From Clostridia bacterium (GTDB taxonomy: Bacteria > Bacillota > Clostridia > HGM11514), in assembly GCA_034117945.1 (NCBI GenBank), contig JAXEOR010000156.1, positions 1 through 38,556 on the forward strand: a stretch of DNA of 38,556 nucleotides, read 5' to 3'. The position numbers and the translations under genes are program-made. The notes beneath the pieces are model-generated. The model saw nothing but the letters and a program-made list of their open reading frames with translations, was not told the origin of the DNA and searched no databases. Shown here piece by piece: positions 6,733 through 38,556 of the stretch (positions are counted from its first letter, which is position 1; each line of letters opens with the position of its first letter).

Positions 6733-8055
6733 GTGGACAGGGTAATGGAAATTTTAAATTTTGATTTATCAAAAAAAATCGGAGCATTTAAAATTCTGAA
6801 TGCCACAAACGGCGGTCCCTGGCACAAGCGATATGCCAACGACCAATGGAGAAGTAATTTTGAAGCATACAAGGCGGCCAGAATCCCCTATTCAAGAAAT
6901 CATGATTCCAATCTGTGCAGTACCTACGGCGGCCCCTATGCGTATGATATCACGGCCACCTTTCCCAATTTTGAGGCAGATGAAACAGATCCCACATCCT
7001 ACGATTTTGCCTGCACGGACGAATCTATTTTAACAACACTTGATGCCGGAACCGAAACCTTTTTCAGATTGGGTCAGTCTATTGAGCATCAAATCAAAAA
7101 GCACGGCACGCTGCCTCCCAAGAATTTTAAAAAGTGGGCGGTGATCTGCGAGCATGTGATCCGGCATTATAACGAGGGCTGGGCTGACGGCTTTCATTTG
7201 AACATGGAATATTGGGAAATTTGGAACGAGCCCGATTTAGACAGTGATGATAGCGAAAACAAGCGCACCTGGGGTGGGACAAAGGTACAGTTTTTTGACT
7301 TGTATGAGGTGACTGCAAAGCATTTAAAATCCTGTTTTCCCCATTTGAAGATAGGCGGGCCTGCCCTTGCCGGGAACGAGGAATGGGCGGCGGAATTTTT
7401 AAGCGAAATGAATGCAAGAGAGGTTCCGATTGATTTTTTCTCCTGGCATATTTACTGCGTTGAACCAAAGCAGCTGGTGGAAAAGGCAGAGAGAATCAAA
7501 GAAATGCTGATCGCAAACGGATACGAAAAAGCAGAAAGTATTTTGAACGAATGGAATTATGTGAGCGGGTGGAAGGAAACCTTTGTAGATTCCATCCAAA
7601 CCATCCATGGTATGAAGGGGGCCGCTTTTACAATGGCGTGTATGTCGGCGGCACAGCGCTCCTCCATTGATCTGCTGATGTATTACGACACGCGCCCTTC
7701 TGCCTTTTGTGGCGCCTTTGATTTCTATACCTATGAGCCTTTGAAGGGGTATTACCCGCTGATGTGGTACGGCATGTTTTATGATATGGAGGCCGAGATC
7801 GCTTGCGAGACGGAGGCAGAGGATATATACACCCTTTGCGGCTGCGATCAAAAGGGCAAAATCCTTTCGGTGATCACCTATTACACCGATCAGGCCGCCG
7901 CTCCGGCAAAGGAGATTGCAATCAACTTCGGCCGGCCGGGCAGCTATCAACTTTATCTGCTGGACGGGGAGCATAACGCAGACCTCATGGGAGAAACCAC
8001 AGATCTAACTCTGACGATGCATCCTAATACCTGCCTTATGATTAAAGAACTGTAA
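6733..8055 (+). CDS. Cytoplasmic clan GH-A glycoside hydrolase (GH39-like)
   Basis: WEIWNEPD is the acid/base NEP motif typical of (beta/alpha)8 clan GH-A enzymes. There is no signal peptide. The start may be ATG 6745. Confidence 0.6.
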   Translation: MDRVMEILNFDLSKKIGAFKILNATNGGPWHKRYANDQWRSNFEAYKAARIPYSRNHDSNLCSTYGGPYAYDITATFPNFEADETDPTSYDFACTDESILTTLDAGTETFFRLGQSIEHQIKKHGTLPPKNFKKWAVICEHVIRHYNEGWADGFHLNMEYWEIWNEPDLDSDDSENKRTWGGTKVQFFDLYEVTAKHLKSCFPHLKIGGPALAGNEEWAAEFLSEMNAREVPIDFFSWHIYCVEPKQLVEKAERIKEMLIANGYEKAESILNEWNYVSGWKETFVDSIQTIHGMKGAAFTMACMSAAQRSSIDLLMYYDTRPSAFCGAFDFYTYEPLKGYYPLMWYGMFYDMEAEIACETEAEDIYTLCGCDQKGKILSVITYYTDQAAAPAKEIAINFGRPGSYQLYLLDGEHNADLMGETTDLTLTMHPNTCLMIKEL

Positions 8056-29377: not shown

Positions 29378-29619
29378 ATGTGGGGAAAGGGCGGCTTTTC
29401 TAACATCGAGCCAGAATGAATTCTGTTTCACATTGGGGGGCTTTGCCCCTCTTTTTTTGTAGGCCAAGCAAAATCCTTTACGAGAACAAAGGAAAACCGT
29501 TGCAATTAACCGAAAACTATAGTATAATAAATACAAATCAATGTGCGGCATCTCTTAGGGAGAGCCCTCTACAAAGAACGGAACAATCAAATGAACCTGC
29601 GGAACAAAGGAGAAAAAAG

Positions 29620-30813
29620 ATGAGTTTATTTCAGCCTGCAAACATTCTGCTTCCCAAAAGCAGTATTTCTTTCAACAAATGGTGCGTGGTAGCCTGCGAC
29701 CAGTATACCTCCCGGCCGGATTACTGGGAAAGGGTGGAGCAGCTGGTGGGAGACAGCCCCAGCACCCTGCGTCTGGTTTATCCGGAGGCCTATCTGTCCC
29801 AGGGAGAGGGCAGAATTGCCGCCATCAACCAAGCCATGGAGCAATATCTGGCCGACGGGGTATTTTGCGAGTATCCCAACAGCCTGATTTATGTGGAACG
29901 CACCCTGTCCGGCGGAAGAATCCGCCGAGGCATTGTGGGGGCGGTTGATTTGGAGGAGTATGATTATCAAAAGGGCTCCAAAAGTAAAATCCGTGCCACC
30001 GAGGGAACCGTTCTGGAGCGCATTCCTCCCCGGGTCAAAATCCGTCAAAATGCTCCCCTGGAGCTGCCTCATGTGATTTTGCTGATCGACGATCCGGCGC
30101 AGGCAATCATAGAAGGAGTTCAACCTGGGAAACTATTATATGAAACGGAGCTGATGGCCGGAGGAGGTCGCCTGACCGGCCGGGAAATCGATCCGGAGGA
30201 AACTGCGGCCTTTTTAGATAGATTTCAGAAGCTGGAGCAGTCCGCCCCTGACGGGCTGGTGCTGGCGGTAGGAGACGGAAACCATTCCTTAGCCTCTGCA
30301 AAGGCCTGCTGGGAGGCTATTAAGCCGTCCCTTTCTCCTGAGGAGCGGGAAACCCATCCCGCCCGGTTCTGCCTGGCGGAGGTGGAAAATATTCACGATC
30401 CGGCACAGGAATTTGAACCCATTCATCGGGTTGTGTTCGGAACTCAGCCGGAGCAGCTGCTGGAAGGCTTTTTGTCGCTGCCTCAGGTGTCACAAGCACC
30501 GGGAGGACAACAAATCACCTGCCTGTATGCGGGCAAGGAGATCACAGTTTTTCTGAATAATGTTACCCTGGCGGTGGGTCTGCTGCAAAAATATCTGGAC
30601 GAGCAGGGGGCTCAGGTGGATTATATCCACGGAGAGGATGAGGTTCGGCGGCTTTCCTCCCAGCCCGGAAATCTGGGATTTTTACTGCCCAAGCCGGGAA
30701 AATCGGAGCTGTTTCGTACCGTTATTCAGGACGGGACTCTTCCCCGGAAAACCTTTTCCATGGGAGAAGCCAACGAAAAGCGGTATTACATGGAGGCAAA
30801 AAAAATCAGATAA
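29620..30813 (+). CDS. DUF1015-family protein
   Basis: I chose ATG 29620 because an AAAGGAG RBS precedes it; the ORF track starts at 29416, inside a terminator/promoter region. The N-terminus MSLFQPANILLPK...VVACDQYTS is typical of DUF1015. Confidence 0.7.
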   Translation: MSLFQPANILLPKSSISFNKWCVVACDQYTSRPDYWERVEQLVGDSPSTLRLVYPEAYLSQGEGRIAAINQAMEQYLADGVFCEYPNSLIYVERTLSGGRIRRGIVGAVDLEEYDYQKGSKSKIRATEGTVLERIPPRVKIRQNAPLELPHVILLIDDPAQAIIEGVQPGKLLYETELMAGGGRLTGREIDPEETAAFLDRFQKLEQSAPDGLVLAVGDGNHSLASAKACWEAIKPSLSPEERETHPARFCLAEVENIHDPAQEFEPIHRVVFGTQPEQLLEGFLSLPQVSQAPGGQQITCLYAGKEITVFLNNVTLAVGLLQKYLDEQGAQVDYIHGEDEVRRLSSQPGNLGFLLPKPGKSELFRTVIQDGTLPRKTFSMGEANEKRYYMEAKKIR

Positions 30814-30875: not shown

Positions 30876-33209
30876 TTGAAAAAGCGATTTGGGTTATTGG
30901 GCTTGGCTTTTTTGTTGGTGTTTAGCTGCTTTTGCAGTGCCGGTGCAGAGGAAGGAGAGAAATATGCTACCCGTGGCAGGGTGCTGGAAATGATTTTAAC
31001 CGCTGCGGACGCATATTATGAAAATCTGCAGCCCTCCGATATTATGAAGGGGGACGGAGACGGCCAGTTAAGAGAGAACGATCCGGTAATCCGGGTGGAG
31101 GCCATGGCTATGCTCAGCCGTGCCTTTCCGGATCTTCCTGCTGCGTCGGAGTATCAATATTCCCTGGGCAGCTTTGGCATTACCTTTACCGATCTCCCTC
31201 AATGGGCGGAGGCAGATCTTTCTAACCTGACCCGGGCGGGCATTGTGGCGGGCTATCCAGACGGCCGGCTGGGGGTTGAGGATTATGTGACCGAAGAGCA
31301 AATGACGCTGATGATCCGCCGGATCTGGGCATATTTGGGCAGTAATTTGAAGGACGATTTTTACAGCTTCTGCAACAAGCCCTGGCTGGACACTGCCACC
31401 CTTTCTGCCAGCCAGCTGGAGGCGGGAACCTTTCAGCAGGCAGACAGTCAGGTCAGTCAGCGGCTGCAGGAATATGTGGAAGAGGTGGCCTCCAAGCAGT
31501 GGCGCACGGATACACCGGAGCAAAGAATAAAAAATTTCTATCTTTCCGCCTTGGACACGGAGGACGGCAATCCGCAAGGACTGTTTGCCCTGCGGACCTT
31601 TCTGATTGGCTACGATCAGGCAGAGTCTCTTCAGGAGCTGATGGATCTCCATGCCAAGATCAGCAAATTGATGGGAGACGGGGGGATTTTAGGCCTGACG
31701 GTTGATGTGGATCTCCTGACAGGAGAACGGTATGTGCCCTATGTGACGGGGGCTGCGGGAATTTTGGAAAAGTCCTATTTTACCACTGAGGACGAGCAGG
31801 CAAAGGAGGCCTATCTGAATTACGTTTCCGATCTGCTGATTCTGGGGGGCGAGGAAAAGCTTACAGCCAAAAAGCATGCCATGCAGCTGTATGAAATGGA
31901 GAAGGAAATCGCCCTGGCATCTTTGGATCCCAAGGACTATTATACTTTTGAAAAAACCTATCACAGATACCAGCCCTTAGCCCTGCGGCAGCTGTTTCGG
32001 GATTTCTCGCCGGAGCCCCTGCTGGAGGATATGGACGGGGTGGGATTTTTCGTTATCACAGATTTGGGCAGAGTGCAAAAAACCATTGAATACTGCACAG
32101 AGGACAATCTGGAGCTTTTGAAAACCTATATGAAATTCTGGCTGCTGGAGGGCTGCTCCTCTCTGCTGGGAGAAGAATTTTATCAGCCGGGAGCGGAGTT
32201 GATGAATTCACTGTATGGGGTTGAGCTGACCTATGACAGCAAGCAGATGTCAGCCCAGCTGGTGCAGGGATATCTGGGAGAATATCTGGAGGAGTTTTAC
32301 GCAAAGGAATACTGCTCTCCTCAAATTAAAGAGGACGTGACCGATCTGGTTCTCCAGCTGAAGGAGGCCTTCCGAGTCAGGCTGGAGCAGGCGGACTGGC
32401 TTGGGGAAGAAACCAGAAAGCAGGCTATAGAAAAGCTGAACAGCATGATTCTGAACATTGCTTATTCAGAGGAGTTTTACGATTCCTACGAGGGAGAATA
32501 TTTTGAAAATGATTTGCTGACAAACGCACTGATTGTCCGCTCCTATTTGTATGACCTGAGCTGTTTTGCAATCGGGCAGGAGGCAAGCCGTGACCGTTGG
32601 ATCATGCCTTGCTACACCGTGAATGCGGCTTATGACCCTTCCGCAAATTCCATTACCATTCCTGCCGGCATTTTGCAGCAGCCCTTTTATGACCCCTATG
32701 GGGAGGAGGAAGAAAATCTGGGAGGAATCGGTACGATTATTGCCCACGAAATTACCCATGCTTTTGATGACAGCGGCGCCCAATATGACAAAACAGGCAG
32801 GTATGATAATTGGTGGACCAAGGAAGATCTTCAGGCGTTTCAACAAAAATGCACCCAGGTGGAGGAATTTTATGACGGATGGGAAATCAGCAATTACGCC
32901 AAGTGTGACGGAGCCTTAACCCTGGGAGAAAATGTGGCGGATCTGGGGGGCATGGCCTGCACCCTGGAGGTGATGAAAACCCTGGAGGATCCCGATTATG
33001 CCTTGTTTTTTGAAAGCTATGCAGGGCTTTGGAGGGATTATGTCAGAAGGGAAATGGTCAGCTATTATGCGGACAATGACGTGCATGCACCTGCCAGTCT
33101 TCGGGTGAACAGAGTGGTTGTGAATTTCCAGGAATTTTACGATACCTATGGGATAGAGCCGGGAGACGGCATGTATTTTCCTCCCAAGGAGCGAGTTAGG
33201 GTTTGGTAA
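30876..33209 (+). CDS. Secreted M13-family zinc metallopeptidase (PepO-like) with an N-terminal SLH-like module
   Basis: There is a signal peptide. The SLH-like segment is FTDLPQWAEADLSNLTRAGIVAGYPDGRLG. The zinc-site motifs are HEITHAF (HExxH) and GENVADLGG. The TTG start is preceded by GAGGAGGAAG. Confidence 0.85.
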   Translation: MKKRFGLLGLAFLLVFSCFCSAGAEEGEKYATRGRVLEMILTAADAYYENLQPSDIMKGDGDGQLRENDPVIRVEAMAMLSRAFPDLPAASEYQYSLGSFGITFTDLPQWAEADLSNLTRAGIVAGYPDGRLGVEDYVTEEQMTLMIRRIWAYLGSNLKDDFYSFCNKPWLDTATLSASQLEAGTFQQADSQVSQRLQEYVEEVASKQWRTDTPEQRIKNFYLSALDTEDGNPQGLFALRTFLIGYDQAESLQELMDLHAKISKLMGDGGILGLTVDVDLLTGERYVPYVTGAAGILEKSYFTTEDEQAKEAYLNYVSDLLILGGEEKLTAKKHAMQLYEMEKEIALASLDPKDYYTFEKTYHRYQPLALRQLFRDFSPEPLLEDMDGVGFFVITDLGRVQKTIEYCTEDNLELLKTYMKFWLLEGCSSLLGEEFYQPGAELMNSLYGVELTYDSKQMSAQLVQGYLGEYLEEFYAKEYCSPQIKEDVTDLVLQLKEAFRVRLEQADWLGEETRKQAIEKLNSMILNIAYSEEFYDSYEGEYFENDLLTNALIVRSYLYDLSCFAIGQEASRDRWIMPCYTVNAAYDPSANSITIPAGILQQPFYDPYGEEEENLGGIGTIIAHEITHAFDDSGAQYDKTGRYDNWWTKEDLQAFQQKCTQVEEFYDGWEISNYAKCDGALTLGENVADLGGMACTLEVMKTLEDPDYALFFESYAGLWRDYVRREMVSYYADNDVHAPASLRVNRVVVNFQEFYDTYGIEPGDGMYFPPKERVRVW

Positions 33210-33225
33210 CAAACAGAGCAGAACA

Positions 33226-33272
33226 GTCCCCGGCGCCAACGAAGATTGGCGCCGGGGACCCTCTCTTTTTTT
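33226..33272. terminator. Bidirectional intrinsic terminator between convergent genes
   Basis: Perfect 12-bp stem GTCCCCGGCGCC (33226-33237) / GGCGCCGGGGAC (33248-33259), then CCTCTCTTTTTTT. Confidence 0.85.
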
Positions 33273-33295: not shown

Positions 33296-34027
33296 TTATT
33301 TGCAGTGACTGTGGTAGTCAAATGAGGCAGAATCGTCAAAATCCTCTCTTTGGGGCGGGAAAAATTCATCAAAGGGGAATTGGATTCTCTCAAACAGATC
33401 GCAGGGATTATCCTCTGTTGCGGAGATACATTCCTTCTGAGGAATACAGAAATCAAAGGACGGGATCAACAGCTGGGTCTTTCTTTCCAGCTTAACGATG
33501 GTGAACAGTCCTAAAGAAACCTGAACTCTCTTGTGCTCGCCGGAAGAAACCAGCTCGTCATTAAAGCATCCGCAAATAAACTGAGGAATGCTGCAGGGAT
33601 CTTCACAGCAGGAGCATTTTTCAACCAATCTTGCTCCCAGGCAGATGGGATCAACAGCCTCCACAACAGCCTTGGGAAGGTTGGTTTTGCCGGTCAGCTG
33701 GGTGTCAGATTCGTTGGGACGATACTTTGAGGTGAAGATCTTGGCGTTTCCTTCCGAGCCGAACAGAATCACCTTTTTGTCAAAGGTGGCCAGACCCTCC
33801 GCCTGAACGGGCGTTCCCACGCCGGTAAAGACATCCAGGGTAATCCGGAAGAAGTATTTGATATCAACCGTGAAAAAGCCCCGGTTGAAGGGCACAGCCT
33901 CCACATCGCTGTAAATCCAGATAATTTCAGCTTTGCGGCATTTTACATTGATTGCCCGGTTAATCAGCTCCTGATCCGGCCGGGTGAATAATACATTTAG
34001 ATTCTCGAGACAGTCTTTTTCATAGGA
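33296..34027 (-). pseudogene. 5'-truncated Cys-rich hypothetical CDS, apparently interrupted by the recombinase-bearing element
   Basis: The ORF track begins at GTG 33904. The same frame stays open and protein-like for 41 more codons (SYEKDCLENLNVLFTRPDQELINRAINVKCRKAEIIWIYSDVEAVPF...) up to 34027. No ATG, GTG or TTG start occurs there. It ends 17 nt from the recombinase stop, where composition drops to AT-rich. Confidence 0.55.
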
Positions 34028-34043
34028 TTACGCATGATAGAAA

Positions 34044-35537
34044 TTATTTATGTAGCTTGAAATGAATGTCTAAAAAGAAATCGTTGTTCCATTCTCCCTT
34101 TTTTCTTTCATAACTGGCATATGAAACAATTGATTTCAGCATGATGTTTTTTTCCTCTGGATTGCTGCCCCAATAATTTTTTAATAGTTTCTTTGCGTTT
34201 GGAATAAAATCCTCGTTTGTCAGCTTCTGATTTAATTCGTTTAAAATTTCTTTTTGTTCCTCGATTGATTTTTCGATGGCTTCTATTTCTCTTTCAATCG
34301 TTTCTTTTCTTTCCATGAATGTCGGAATATCATAAACCCCCTGCTCCAAAAGATCGTGCAGCTTATTCTTTTGGCCGATTGTGACAGTGAGTTTCTTTTC
34401 TAATTTTTCAATTGCATTTTCCGTTGATTCTGTTTGGCCTTTGTCTATTCCAAAGTCAACAAGTCCGCTTTCGCATTTTTTAACGAAATTGTCTATGTCT
34501 CGATAGAACTGTTTTTCCACCTGTTCAACGGTAGCGGATTTCGTGCACCCCTTTGTTGTGCAAATAACTCTCTGCCAATTGTGCTTCTTTGAATATTGCC
34601 TTGTCATCAAAGAGCCGCAAACGCCACAGTACAGCAATCCGCAAAACGGATTCTTGACTGTTCCGTTATTGCTTGGTGGATGAGAATGAGAACGTCTTAT
34701 TTTATCCGCTTTCCAAAAAATATCTTCATCTACAATCGCCGGATGCTTTCCCTTTACAACGATCCAATCTTTTTCCGGCATGATTTGCCTCCTGTTTTTT
34801 TCATCAGGAGATTTTTTTCGGATGTGTTTGTTCCTGTTCCATTGAATCAATCCGATGTATGTTTTATTTTGCAAAATAAACCGAACTGTATTTCTTGAAA
34901 AACCGGTTCCTTTTCTTCCCGACAGACCCATCTGGTTCAAGTGGTTTGCAATGGAGTAGGTACCCATGTTTTGGTTGACGTACATATCAAAAATCATCCG
35001 AACAACTTCCGCCTGCTCCGGGTGTGGTGACAGAGTGGGAATTTTTCCGTCCCACGCTCTAATGTATCCATATGGAGGCTCTGCGATATAGCCGCCCTGT
35101 TCAATTGTTCTTTTCCGGCCTTCTCCCATTCTTCTCTTAATTGCCTTTAATTCATTTCTGGCAATGATCCCTTTGAATTCAAAAAACATTTCGTCCTTTT
35201 CATTGCCCGGATTGTAAACTTCCCTTGGAGTAATAATTTTTGTATCAGTGTACCGGAATTTATTCATCATCAAACCTTGCTCCTGCATATCGCCACGGCC
35301 GAGACGGTCAATGTCCATGCACAAAACAGCGTCGTAATTCTCCAGCTCAGACAATAATTTCAGCATTTCCGGGCGGTTGAAAATACTCTCTCCGCTGACA
35401 ACCTCCTCATATATTTTCGTAACAGTAAGATTGTTTTTGGCCGCAAATTCAAGAAGTGTTTCCTTATGCTTTGCCAATGTGTCCTCTGCGTTTTGTTCAT
35501 CAGCCCTTGACTTTCTTAAATATATCGCCGTTTTCAA
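34044..35537 (-). CDS. Large serine recombinase (resolvase/invertase N-domain, recombinase domain, zinc ribbon, coiled coil)
   Basis: The N-terminus MKTAIYLRKSRADE carries the catalytic Ser context. The zinc ribbon is CGLLYCGVCGS...CTTKGC. The C-terminus is coiled-coil. The TTG start is preceded by GGTGA. Confidence 0.9.
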   Translation of the reverse strand: MKTAIYLRKSRADEQNAEDTLAKHKETLLEFAAKNNLTVTKIYEEVVSGESIFNRPEMLKLLSELENYDAVLCMDIDRLGRGDMQEQGLMMNKFRYTDTKIITPREVYNPGNEKDEMFFEFKGIIARNELKAIKRRMGEGRKRTIEQGGYIAEPPYGYIRAWDGKIPTLSPHPEQAEVVRMIFDMYVNQNMGTYSIANHLNQMGLSGRKGTGFSRNTVRFILQNKTYIGLIQWNRNKHIRKKSPDEKNRRQIMPEKDWIVVKGKHPAIVDEDIFWKADKIRRSHSHPPSNNGTVKNPFCGLLYCGVCGSLMTRQYSKKHNWQRVICTTKGCTKSATVEQVEKQFYRDIDNFVKKCESGLVDFGIDKGQTESTENAIEKLEKKLTVTIGQKNKLHDLLEQGVYDIPTFMERKETIEREIEAIEKSIEEQKEILNELNQKLTNEDFIPNAKKLLKNYWGSNPEEKNIMLKSIVSYASYERKKGEWNNDFFLDIHFKLHK

Positions 35538-35613: not shown

Positions 35614-35811
35614 TTATCTGAATCTATAATCAATTCCACTTTGCTTTAAGATAGCGTTTGCAGTATGCCTTGATTTGATTTTTGTATCAACAGTTACATG
35701 ACGAAGAGTGATTGGGCTGTACCAAATATCATGATCACCTTTTCCGTGTCTTATAAAGGTACACTTATTTTGACTGAGAATTTCACGGACTTTCTTTTCA
35801 TATTCAGCCAT
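35614..35811 (-). CDS. hicA: HicA-family mRNA interferase toxin
   Basis: The 65-aa protein contains ...FIRHGKGDHDIWYSP...KSRHTANAILKQSGI, typical of HicA/YcfA. It overlaps the hicB stop by 1 nt. Confidence 0.8.
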   Translation of the reverse strand: MAEYEKKVREILSQNKCTFIRHGKGDHDIWYSPITLRHVTVDTKIKSRHTANAILKQSGIDYRFR

Positions 35812-36029
35812 TACAGAGCAATCCTTTCATGTCTTTCTGATACAAAAATTAAAGTAGAAGATGTTTTTTGTGATTGGTTCAGTTCTAGCAATTCCGGCAC
35901 GGCAAATCTGACACGCTCCAGAAGGGCATCAAATGAACCCGCTTCCAGTACAAGACCCGGAACATCATCACTTGTTGCAATCCAAACATTTGCTTCCGGA
36001 TCCCATGATATATGAATGATATAGTCCAT
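35811..36029 (-). CDS. hicB: HicB-like antitoxin (DUF1902-type)
   Basis: MDYIIHISWDPEANVWIATSDDVPGLVLEAGSFDALLERV matches the DUF1902/HicB N-terminal fold pattern. Confidence 0.7.
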   Translation of the reverse strand: MDYIIHISWDPEANVWIATSDDVPGLVLEAGSFDALLERVRFAVPELLELNQSQKTSSTLIFVSERHERIAL

Positions 36030-36118: not shown

Positions 36119-36550
36119 CTATTTATTTACAACCTTACAATTTGTTATTTGAATAGAATTATCATATGTATTATAATACAATGAAGCATTAACGTTTTGA
36201 TAATTTCCTTCAAATGAAAAATTTATGTATTCCCAATAGCCTGAGAATTGTCCGCTGCATATTGTTCCGTGCATTCCCATTTTTTCTAAATCGTTTCTTG
36301 TAATACCTCCATAAAAACCGTTTGATATCTTACAAAATCTAGATACGGTGATCGACCTTATCCTTTTTGTATTTAGATTTCTATCGATATAAGGATAAAA
36401 AAACACACAAGGCACTCTATCGTCCGTATATTTTATACCTTCTCCTCCTCGATCATATCCTGTATATTCATAATCTCCTCCGAAAAAATACTCAATCAGA
36501 TTTATTGGTTGACCTATAAAATCTATCATTGTGTAATCAGTAATAAGCAC
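36119..36550 (-). CDS. Hypothetical protein (143 aa), Tyr/Gly/Asn-rich
   Basis: Intact ORF downstream of the stalk-domain gene. No family recognised. Confidence 0.45.
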   Translation of the reverse strand: MLITDYTMIDFIGQPINLIEYFFGGDYEYTGYDRGGEGIKYTDDRVPCVFFYPYIDRNLNTKRIRSITVSRFCKISNGFYGGITRNDLEKMGMHGTICSGQFSGYWEYINFSFEGNYQNVNASLYYNTYDNSIQITNCKVVNK

Positions 36551-36555
36551 CCGGT

Positions 36556-36957
36556 TTAAATCAGAACTCCAAAAACATTATTATCGAAAGCCTCAGCAAT
36601 TGCACGAACCGGAACGAAAGTTCTATCATTGATTTTTATTATTTCTGAATCCAATTGAACTCTTGTATCGTTTGTATAAATGAAATCATCGCCTATTTTA
36701 AAAGAAACAACTGTTTTTTCGTCAATCGCTTTTACAGATTGGTTTTCTTCATCCCATTCTACTGTTGCTCCTATGGTTTCAAAAATGGTTCTCATTGGAA
36801 CCATAACTCGTTCATTAATCATTCTAGGAGGAACATCAAACCACAGCATTTCTCCATTGTACACAACAGAAATATCCTCTGCTTTTACAAGTATTGCACC
36901 AACAAAGCAAGATATAATAAGTAAAAAAATAAAAAATAATTTTTTCATAAAATCCAC
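36556..36957 (-). CDS. Secreted copper-amine-oxidase N-terminal (stalk) domain protein
   Basis: There is a signal peptide (KKLFFIFLLIISCFVGAILVKA). The repeat pattern ...ERVMVPMRTIFETIGATVEWDEENQSV...NDRTFVPVRAIAEAF is typical of the CuAO N-terminal-like domain. Confidence 0.7.
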   Translation of the reverse strand: MDFMKKLFFIFLLIISCFVGAILVKAEDISVVYNGEMLWFDVPPRMINERVMVPMRTIFETIGATVEWDEENQSVKAIDEKTVVSFKIGDDFIYTNDTRVQLDSEIIKINDRTFVPVRAIAEAFDNNVFGVLI

Positions 36958-36967
36958 CCCAAATACA

Positions 36968-37567
36968 TTAAAATTTCGCCCGTAATTCCACGACCTTTCC
37001 CAATATAATGACAGGGAGCTCTTCTATTTCGTTGTTTGTATATAACATTACTTCATAATTCTGATTGAGAGGAACAAGCATGACTCCATCAGGGCTCTTT
37101 TTAATTTTTTTAATAGTAGCTTCGTTTCCATCGATCAAAACAACGGCAATATCACCGCTATCAACATCAGATTGTTTTCTAACAATAACAACATCCCCTT
37201 CTGAAAATTTCGGCTCCATACTGTTGCCTTGTATTTACAATGCAAAATGCTCTCCTTGCGAATCCATCTTTTGTGATATTTCTTCATAGTCCAATATTTC
37301 TTCCACAGCTTCAATTGGAATTCCGGCGATAACTTTTCCCAGGACTGGAATTTTAACACCTTTTCCAGTTGACTTGGTATCTTCATTTCCTAATATGTAA
37401 TCTACAGATACATCAAAAAAATTTGCTAATTTTATTAGATTTTCTTTTCCTGGATCGCTGTCTCCTCTCTCGTACTTTACATATGTTGTTCTGTCTACAC
37501 CTAATACAGCTGCTACATCCTTTTGGTACAAACCTTTTGATTCCCTTAATTTTCTTAGACGTTCCAT
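36968..37567 (-). pseudogene. XRE-HTH / S24 (LexA-like) phage repressor interrupted by one in-frame TAA
   Basis: 37235-37567 encodes the HTH (LRESKGLYQKDVAAVLGVDRTTYVKYERG) plus a linker. The minus strand across the break reads GEHFAL-TAA-IQGNSMEPKFSEGDVV, so the stop (37235-37237) lies 5 codons before the Ser of the G-x-S-M-E-P nucleophile motif. 36968-37219 is the rest of the S24 domain in the same frame. Confidence 0.75.
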
Positions 37568-37706: not shown

Positions 37707-37982
37707 ATGAAAGGGGTTGATCGCATGGAATACGTAAACGGCATACCGTCTTTTCAATCTGTGGAAGAAATGAATCCATATCTCGACGATATGAAGGAAG
37801 ATGATTTGTTTATCCTCAGGGGAGAAACGAGGGTGTTTCTGTTTTCAACCAGAACGGAGCACGGTGTTTCCGTAAGCAGCTGCTCTCCGGGGGCGCCTTC
37901 GTTCCGAGGAAGTCCGGAAGAAAAAGAATTTTTCGGAATCTTGTATGGCGTATACTTAAGAAACAAAAACAAACAGGGGTAA
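37707..37982 (+). CDS. Hypothetical small early-region protein
   Basis: ORF divergent from the repressor. The start may be ATG 37725 (MEYVNG...). Confidence 0.4.
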   Translation: MKGVDRMEYVNGIPSFQSVEEMNPYLDDMKEDDLFILRGETRVFLFSTRTEHGVSVSSCSPGAPSFRGSPEEKEFFGILYGVYLRNKNKQG

Positions 37983-38026
37983 ATCTCCCCTGTTGGAAGG
38001 ACAACCACAAGAAAGGAGCAACAATC

Positions 38027-38200
38027 ATGAAAATTAAAATGATCAAAACGGTGCGTGACACGTTTGCGCCGGTGGGGACGGTGCTGTACAGCGGAAGTCA
38101 ATACCGTGCCGAGAAGGACAACGGAATTGTTTACGGGATCTGCGAAAACGGTCAAAAGATTCCCTTGGAGGATGATGTGTGGGAGGAAGTAAAGACATGA
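38027..38200 (+). CDS. Hypothetical 57-aa protein; not in the ORF track
   Basis: Hand translation gives MKIKMIKTVRDTFAPVGTVLYSGSQYRAEKDNGIVYGICENGQKIPLEDDVWEEVKT*. GAAAGGAG lies 8 nt upstream. The stop overlaps the next start (ATGA). Confidence 0.5.
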   Translation: MKIKMIKTVRDTFAPVGTVLYSGSQYRAEKDNGIVYGICENGQKIPLEDDVWEEVKT

Positions 38201-38391
38201 GCGTTTTGGACTATTCAGAACGGAAGGAAGAAGAAATTCACAGCTTTGTGGCGGACAAGCGCAGGATGATCAACCGGGCAAGGGACATGAAACGGAAAGA
38301 AATTCTTGACAGCGTTTGTCTTGTGTTCTGGCTGTTTGCCGGAGCTGTGGCGATGTACTTTGTTGTTATGGCGGGAGGGATGTATCGATGA
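38197..38391 (+). CDS. Small membrane protein (one C-terminal TM helix)
   Basis: MSVLDYSERKEE...VCLVFWLFAGAVAMYFVVMAGG. ATGA overlaps are present at both ends. The ORF track starts at 38179. Confidence 0.5.
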   Translation: MSVLDYSERKEEEIHSFVADKRRMINRARDMKRKEILDSVCLVFWLFAGAVAMYFVVMAGGMYR

Positions 38392-38513
38392 GGAAACCGA
38401 TTGCGCCATGTATGCAGTGCGTGGAAAGAGGTGTTGGGTGTCATGGACAGTGCAGCAGATACCGAGCATATCAAGCACAATACAGAATAGAGACAATCCC
38501 GAATTTTGTGTAA
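38388..38513 (+). CDS. Small Cys-rich protein (41 aa)
   Basis: MRKPIAPCMQCVERGVGCHGQCSRYRAYQAQYRIETIPNFV*. The start overlaps the preceding stop. The ORF track extends it upstream to 38316, which I consider unlikely. Confidence 0.45.
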   Translation: MRKPIAPCMQCVERGVGCHGQCSRYRAYQAQYRIETIPNFV

Positions 38514-38556
38514 AGTAGTTGAATAAACCTCCAAGATGGTATATAATAAAAATATC

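Follow-up and report, generated by a model that had tools for sequence, protein, structure and literature searches.

In spore-forming bacteria, the genes known from the literature as targets of programmed rearrangement are few (sigK, spsM, spoVFB, spoVR, gerE and yabG), and they have been reported almost wholly from Bacilli or from pathogenic clostridia. The skin elements found in sigK range in length from 2.6 to 48 kb and always carry the recombinase gene, spoIVCA, at their edge. Here, we examine a stretch of 38,556 nucleotides (hereafter, the window) that constitutes an entire contig (JAXEOR010000156.1) of a Clostridia bacterium known from a 2.1-Mb metagenome-assembled genome (MAG; GCA_034117945.1, here G000) of 218 contigs and 98% completeness. 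An initial annotation of this DNA had proposed that, near one end of the window, an element bearing a large serine recombinase splits a host gene much as skin splits sigK. The split itself is real; both halves of the gene, which encodes a cysteine-rich protein, are present in the genome and an allele with an empty site exists in a related strain. The larger account that we develop, in which a prophage has split a sporulation-type gene in a skin-like manner and the gene is rebuilt by excision, we consider moderately probable.

On the minus strand of the window a frame remains open from position 34027 to the TAA at 33296-33298, that is, for 243 codons with no internal stops. As the initial annotation had remarked, the frame has no start codon at its upstream limit, the sole listed start being a GTG at 33904; the stop codon of the recombinase gene (34044-34046) lies 16 nucleotides (nt) from the top of the frame, and the sequence passes there from GC-rich to AT-rich, with a G+C content that drops from about 0.50 (33600-33999) to 0.34 (34000-34399) and remains at 0.28-0.45 up to about 37800. 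A search with the 243-residue frame recovered 2831 homologues, nearly all of them 270-285 amino acids (aa) long and annotated as nothing more than "hypothetical protein." Their alignments begin at residue 3 of the open frame and they extend about 35 residues beyond its N-terminus; the gene therefore does not start at the GTG, a candidate that is ruled out. Judged by these homologues, the frame from 33296 to 34027 is a truncated gene rather than a chance open reading frame (ORF).

The missing 5' part, which it had been suggested should be sought by tblastn, was found on another contig of the same genome. The query was an uninterrupted 276-aa allele (P0001; 99.6% identical) encoded on a 3.6-kb metagenome contig (L013) of a related strain; the metagenome ERR976802 contains this empty site. 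Its residues 1-36 are encoded at positions 7942-8049 of contig C86, with 36/36 identities, and a TAA follows directly; residues 37-276 correspond to 33296-34018 of the window. The 3' fragment of the split gene (33296..34019, minus strand) thus comprises these residues, the stop codon and the third base of codon 36, and 240 of 241 positions (99.6%) are identical to the intact allele. When the flanks of the element are joined in silico a single ORF of 276 aa results, with one difference from P0001 (I95T), and the joined flanks align with the empty-site contig L013 as a single collinear block (96.3% over 3075 nt). The reconstituted protein is rich in cysteine (16 Cys), has an acidic tail and is without a signal peptide. 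In their separated state neither piece is equipped for expression: the 36-codon piece on C86 retains a promoter of the sigmaK type and a ribosome-binding site and then runs into the phage-derived TAA, and the 240-codon piece in the window has neither a promoter nor a start codon of its own.

With a MAG of 218 contigs, a window that ends (at 38556) within the element, and gene halves that lie on separate contigs, it could be argued that the split is an artefact of assembly or binning, created by a mixture of strains or by chimeric contigs, and that the gene is intact in the organism. We reject this explanation as extremely improbable. Both junctions lie well inside their contigs (at 34020 of 38556 and at 8049 of 9336), and the switch from gene to phage occurs at an identical GA in the two. 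The search of this 98%-complete genome revealed no second copy of the Cys-rich gene, intact or otherwise. The same layout of the junctions, together with a related recombinase and a conserved arm of the phage attachment site, recurs in isolate genomes, and elsewhere both halves are found on single contigs (G270:C37, L054, L061 and L120).

The exchange can be placed to the dinucleotide. An alignment of attL on C86, attR in the window and attB on L013 shows that, in both contigs, the transition from host to foreign DNA falls on the same GA. In the window, attR (34000..34045, minus strand) has its GA crossover at 34021-34020, the phage arm CTATCATGCGTAATCCTAT at 34040-34022, and host sequence below 34020. 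The reconstructed attP is CTATCATGCGTAATCCTAT-GA-ATAAGATTATCAATGATAG (19 + 2 + 19), an imperfect dyad symmetry, which has in common with attB only the GA and scattered flanking bases. Within the gene, where the context is ...TGT AAA GAA AAA GAC TGT..., this GA opens codon 36 (Glu or Asp), and six independent attL and five attR junctions of related elements have the same crossover. Directly after the crossover, the phage side of these attL junctions usually supplies TAA or TGA and therefore the 5' fragment ends at once. The phage arm of attR is conserved in two other genomes, G009 and G117.

The recombinase gene (34044..35537, minus strand) encodes an integrase of 497 aa from a TTG start and reads toward attR. 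It had been described as lying at the extreme edge of the insert, and its stop codon is indeed only 22 nt from the crossover; it is similarly edge-positioned in all of the related loci. The protein contains a Resolvase domain (PF00239, residues 4-149, E = 1.9e-20), a Recombinase domain (PF07508, residues 173-282) and a zinc ribbon (Zn_ribbon_recom, PF13408, residues 297-348), and it matches the phrog_95 integrases with E = 1.2e-105. In the motif of the catalytic serine, YLRKSR, the residues R8, K9, S10 and R11 are invariant in an alignment of eight orthologues. With its catalytic domain, its Recombinase and zinc ribbon domains and its short, dyad-symmetric att sites, the enzyme qualifies as a large serine recombinase. 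The likeness to phage integrases and to the skin-type arrangement that had been pointed out also holds at the level of the protein, which groups with the recombinases that adjoin fragments of sigK (skin), spoVFB and cotJC. Its closest relative, 55% identical, is the recombinase at the same site in G009.

The interruption of this gene is recurrent. Among 169 family-bearing Clostridia genomes it is split in at least 11, at two or three sites. Within the taxonomic family of G000, just one more genus, represented by G009, has a related element (the order-level search covered the same 12 genomes as the family-level search), and there the gene is in three pieces: the orthologous recombinase occupies the same codon, a second and different recombinase lies about 40 codons downstream, and a middle piece of 42 codons is flanked by the two (C162:84-200, locus L037; C227:676-4278, L016; C30:9420-10049, L015). 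Beyond G009, a profile search of suspect genomes identified both halves in ten more, of which two (G242 and G404) have three pieces each, with the extra break in G242 near residue 238. In G270 both halves are on one contig, 40.5 kb apart, and the complete prophage between them encodes a terminase, a portal protein, a capsid protein, a tape measure of 1310 aa and a lysin. A different sort of insertion is seen at codon ~72 of the same gene in G162 and G261 (L024, G162:C46:72500-82000; L025, G261:C129), which have a 7.3-kb non-phage element that encodes capsule-type functions (a CapD-like membrane protein, a CpsD-like tyrosine kinase, a CpsB-like phosphatase and a Wzz-like protein), a PqqD-like ORF and a short serine recombinase of 351-386 aa; both its junctions carry ACACRGATGTG.

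A broader view was obtained from a scan of 185,579 species, one genome per species, with the alignment of eight such recombinases as the query. At no fewer than 55 of the best 80 recombinase loci, a fragment of the Cys-rich gene lies directly past the recombinase stop codon, either its 3' part on the same strand or its 5' part on the opposite strand; since these 80 are biased toward the query alignment, they reveal a large group and not the commonest target of such enzymes. At least nine of the insertions are mini-elements of 2.7-3.9 kb that consist of a recombinase and one or two ORFs and have both halves of the gene within 6.5 kb; their carriers include strains BS-1 and YR-4 of Caproiciproducens galactitolivorans and also Caproiciproducens sp. 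R1, whose genome is complete (elements of about 3.5 kb). Other cultured carriers of an element are Anaeromassilibacillus senegalensis mt9 (a prophage; NZ_LN868536.1, with the recombinase near 709-710.5 kb), Clostridium sp. D33t1_170424_F3 (a 40.5-kb prophage at 68.6-109.2 kb of NZ_JADPEG010000004.1) and Massiliimalia timonensis Marseille-P3753. The elements at the Cys-rich gene therefore range from 2.7-kb mini-elements to the complete 40.5-kb prophage. Another locus, L097, from an uncultured Oscillospiraceae (CAKRVU010000019.1), has a recombinase with a nearly complete copy of the gene (residues 15-268) on one side and a separate N-terminal fragment on the other, the two only about 2.1 kb from each other; the arrangement may represent a tiny inverted element or, alternatively, a paralogue beside a fragment.

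The remaining loci of the best 80 are beside other genes or unresolved sequence. Their neighbors include fragments of sigK (in C. difficile, Petroclostridium, Halalkalibacter and others), of spoVFB (in Bacillus) and of cotJC (in the Thermoactinomycetaceae). A maximum-likelihood tree unites the sigK, spoVFB and cotJC recombinases in a single clade (SH-aLRT 100), nested among the recombinases of the Cys-rich gene. In our account, the element in the window is one member of a large and old group of SpoIVCA-like recombinase elements that are specialized on the Cys-rich gene. As an observation in its own right, fragments of genes for CotJC-like spore coat proteins (of the manganese-catalase type) adjoin SpoIVCA-like recombinases at L072, L104 and L112, in Thermoflavimicrobium, Shimazuella and Lihuaxuella; this suggests the existence of cotJC-intervening elements in the Thermoactinomycetaceae, for which a narrow check of the literature on this term found no mention.

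What does the interrupted gene encode? Its family carries the Pfam identifier PF27077 in precomputed annotations, and it occurs in 206 of the 400 Clostridia genomes sampled, in 169 of them with strong matches. These matches have been compared with the distribution of SpoIVA: 163 genomes have both, 6 have the family only, 143 have SpoIVA only and 87 have neither (odds ratio 16.5, Fisher p = 6e-18, a figure uncorrected for kinship). In other words, 163 of the 169 family genomes are SpoIVA-positive, as against an occurrence of the family in 6 of the 93 SpoIVA-negative genomes; G000 itself has SpoIVA. Upstream of the start codon the sequence TCAC[AC]-N16/17-CATAnnnTA (or CATACAAT) is conserved across genera, with a variable spacer, and a relaxed form of it (AC-N16-18-CATA) is present in 36 of the 39 upstream regions compared, which come from many genera, versus 2.3% of random 130-nt windows. 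We take this motif to be the consensus of sigmaK, the late mother-cell sigma factor. Because of the sigmaK-type motif, the co-occurrence with SpoIVA and the high cysteine content, we infer that the product is a late mother-cell protein of the spore coat or exosporium. The repeated splitting of the gene by relatives of the recombinase, including those of mini-elements devoid of phage genes, was also counted in favor of a sporulation gene. The AlphaFold2 model of P0001 has a mean predicted local distance difference test score (pLDDT) of 64.7, with a beta-rich core (residues 33-122 and 152-214, pLDDT ~80-96) that may represent an undescribed fold.

We would go further, but tentatively and with somewhat less than even confidence, and propose that the whole family consists of late mother-cell spore-surface proteins, and that the rebuilding of its genes by SpoIVCA-like recombinase elements is a widespread developmental rearrangement in gut bacteria of the Oscillospirales type, one older than the skin of sigK. 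The relative age, which holds for the sampled tree, is suggested because the sigK recombinases nest within the group of the Cys-rich gene.

The insert in the window appears, from its gene content, to be a prophage, with an integrase, a HicAB pair, a CI-like repressor and lysis genes. Adjoining the integrase on the minus strand are a HicA toxin gene (35614-35811) and its partner, a HicB-like DUF1902 antitoxin gene (35811-36029), which have their own sigma70-like promoter at 36079-36051. Two cargo ORFs follow on the same strand, one of 143 aa to which no function is assigned (36119-36550) and one of 133 aa with a copper amine oxidase N-terminal-like domain (36556-36957). Next is a CI/LexA-like repressor gene with HTH_3 and Peptidase_S24 domains (36968..37567, minus strand), whose promoter (TTGACT-17-TATAAT, at 37614-37586) lies in a strong divergent promoter region; from there, small early-region ORFs with no family matches are transcribed divergently (37707..38556, plus strand). 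An in-frame TAA at 37235-37237 interrupts the repressor (GEHFAL-stop-IQGNSMEPKF) five codons ahead of the S24 domain's catalytic serine. In its assembled form the repressor would be an HTH-only protein that could not self-cleave; the TAA might reflect a genuine nonsense mutation, domestication, or an error of sequencing. At its opposite end, on C86, the element has an ORF resembling holins and an amidase endolysin that matches phrog_3088 (E = 6e-73). No overlap of the contig end at 38556 with other contigs of G000 was found; nor were structural genes found in this genome, where the proteins of the G270 prophage match only the recombinase, and no close relative of the prophage was found in IMG/VR or among the GenBank phages.

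On the host side of attR, a bidirectional terminator hairpin (33226..33259, plus strand) lies between the split gene and a convergent gene for an M13-family metallopeptidase with an SLH domain (30876-33209, plus strand), beyond which a DUF1015 protein is encoded (29416-30813, plus strand).

The nonsense codon in the repressor, and structural genes that were not found in the G000 assembly, are what might be expected of a degenerating and immobile prophage remnant, in which an inactive recombinase had left the gene permanently lost to this lineage. Such decay is very unlikely to have occurred, since no domain is missing from the full-length recombinase ORF, which also keeps its catalytic motif, the 3' fragment is free of lesions and, as noted above, nearly identical to the intact allele, and the arms of the att sites are intact. 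Missing structural genes, moreover, are to be expected from MAG binning.

In the account that we favor, a temperate phage would have used its large serine recombinase to integrate within codon 36 of the Cys-rich gene, with its crossover at the GA. The resulting lysogen would be unable to make the Cys-rich protein because the 5' piece runs into the TAA and the 3' piece has no promoter or start. A precise recombination between attL and attR, presumably assisted by a recombination directionality factor (RDF), would restore the ORF exactly. The likeliest trigger would be sporulation in the mother cell, as in skin, SPbeta, vfbin, gin and yin, and prophage induction would provide a second possible route to excision. 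A developmentally timed excision of this kind, inferred by analogy with those systems, would occur in the terminally differentiating mother cell and, being confined to it, would leave the element in the spores. A candidate for the RDF is encoded in three or four mini-elements of the Caproiciproducens type, all of one subclade, where a conserved acidic ORF of 60 aa lies upstream of the recombinase (L054, 1601-1783; L057, 1621-1806; L062, 1607-1789); this ORF is absent from G000.

If the gene is rebuilt and used, its separated parts should remain under selection. We have compared six genomes of the Caproiciproducens lineage, each with a mini-element at the same codon. The ratio of nonsynonymous to synonymous substitution (dN/dS) in their promoter-less 3' fragments is 0.00-0.10, with dS as high as 1.0, and in their recombinases, for which the distances rank in the same order, it is 0.06-0.17. 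Strong purifying selection of this sort is what would be expected of a split gene that is still in use, that is, one that is rebuilt. A series of recent independent insertions could be an alternative for these genomes, and it is less likely given the congruent distances.

Such data bear directly on the principal rival to our account, which holds that this is an ordinary prophage in a dispensable gene whose conserved coding sequence provides a convenient attB, that lysogens lose the gene at no cost, and that the prophage is excised upon induction only, not in the course of development. In its favor, the lysogeny module of the G000 element is normal and lysis genes are present, individual species and genera include both occupied and empty sites, and individual coat proteins are often dispensable, as the genetics of the Bacillus subtilis coat has taught. 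Nor did simple patterns detect a motif of the sigmaE or sigmaK type upstream of this recombinase gene, of any of the 55 related ones, or within the assembled 5.8 kb of the element, in which no RDF was recognized either. But this explanation fits poorly with the mini-elements of 2.7-4 kb that lack phage genes although purifying selection maintains an intact recombinase in them, or with the split 3' fragments, which contain no stops in any case seen and have the low dN/dS just described across species with the same insertion. The related recombinases beside sigK and spoVFB, furthermore, belong to systems known from model strains to undergo developmental excision. In G000 the CI-like repressor has lost its cleavage domain to the nonsense codon, and therefore a simple SOS induction is disfavored. 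All told, we regard an ordinary prophage as a possible but rather doubtful explanation.

The want of a sporulation promoter and of an RDF in these searches weighs not only for that rival but also against the account of a developmental rearrangement, and several other points do so as well. The attP form, sought in viral and metagenome contigs with exact and degenerate patterns, was not found. In a MAG of so many contigs the bulk of the prophage is outside the assembly. No match to the Cys-rich protein was obtained in Pfam or NCBIfam, even with full-length homologues at E <= 1, a profile search of the PDB returned only noise, and a Foldseek comparison of the AlphaFold2 model with the PDB gave no match at E <= 0.001. 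The assignment to sigmaK relies on a short motif, and the SpoIVA association includes whatever kinship contributes to it. In the Caproiciproducens set, the recombinase dS is 2-3 times that of the host fragments and vertical inheritance is deduced solely from the congruent distances.

Although the mechanism appears to be of a known kind, the target and the size of the recombinase group dedicated to it appear to be new; we found no mention of the Cys-rich family in the literature on these rearrangements. The locus would thus add a new target gene to the few known for programmed rearrangement in spore formers, and with it an entire group of SpoIVCA-like recombinases dedicated to this gene in the Clostridia of the gut and rumen. 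It also flags an unannotated family, present in about half of the sampled Clostridia, as a probable late sporulation gene. If our more tentative proposal about the whole family is true, the set of programmed rearrangements in spore formers would grow by one major target and by dozens of species, and the family would gain a function. There is a practical consequence too: in MAG catalogues, split genes of this sort will be called pseudogenes or fragments, and the sporulation gene sets of the gut Firmicutes would be understated.

How, then, does the locus compare with the systems already described? With skin and its SpoIVCA recombinase in sigK it has in common a large serine recombinase of ~500 aa at the very edge of the element, a gene in two non-expressed pieces, and elements that vary in orientation and in size, from less than 3 kb to tens of kb; the recombinases beside sigK fragments are 39-43% identical to that of G000 and are nested in the same tree. 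However, the target here is a different and uncharacterized Cys-rich gene, and the element of G000 resembles a complete temperate phage, whereas skin is defective. Skin is also known to excise in a sporulation-specific way and to have an RDF (Skr in B. subtilis, CD1234 in C. difficile), neither of which was found here. The SPbeta prophage of B. subtilis, with its SprA-SprB system in spsM, offers another parallel: an active-looking prophage with a large serine integrase sits in a spore-surface gene controlled by sigmaK (a control that for the present target is predicted), and excision would serve both the lytic cycle and the gene's reconstitution. Unlike that case, SprA is not among the close recombinase relatives retrieved, and an RDF of the SprB type with its own mother-cell promoter has no recognized counterpart in the assembled part of the element. 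A more distant analogy is provided by XisF, the serine recombinase that excises the fdxN element in the heterocysts of cyanobacteria, again from a gene in a terminally differentiating cell. XisF is the best-scoring named NCBIfam model for the G000 recombinase, yet with 97.5 bits against a cut-off of 375; the phylum and the developmental program are different, and the G000 enzyme is not an XisF equivalog. Finally, gin (in gerE), vfbin (in spoVFB), vrin (in spoVR) and yin (in yabG) are likewise recombinase-borne elements inside mother-cell sporulation genes. Among these, gin is a non-prophage mini-element comparable to the 2.7-4 kb elements of Caproiciproducens and others, and the Bacillus recombinases that adjoin spoVFB fall in the same tree as those described here. 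What sets the present system apart from all four is that its target is another gene, and that the Cys-rich family has acquired elements at as many as three different codons, with a maximum of two in any single genome.

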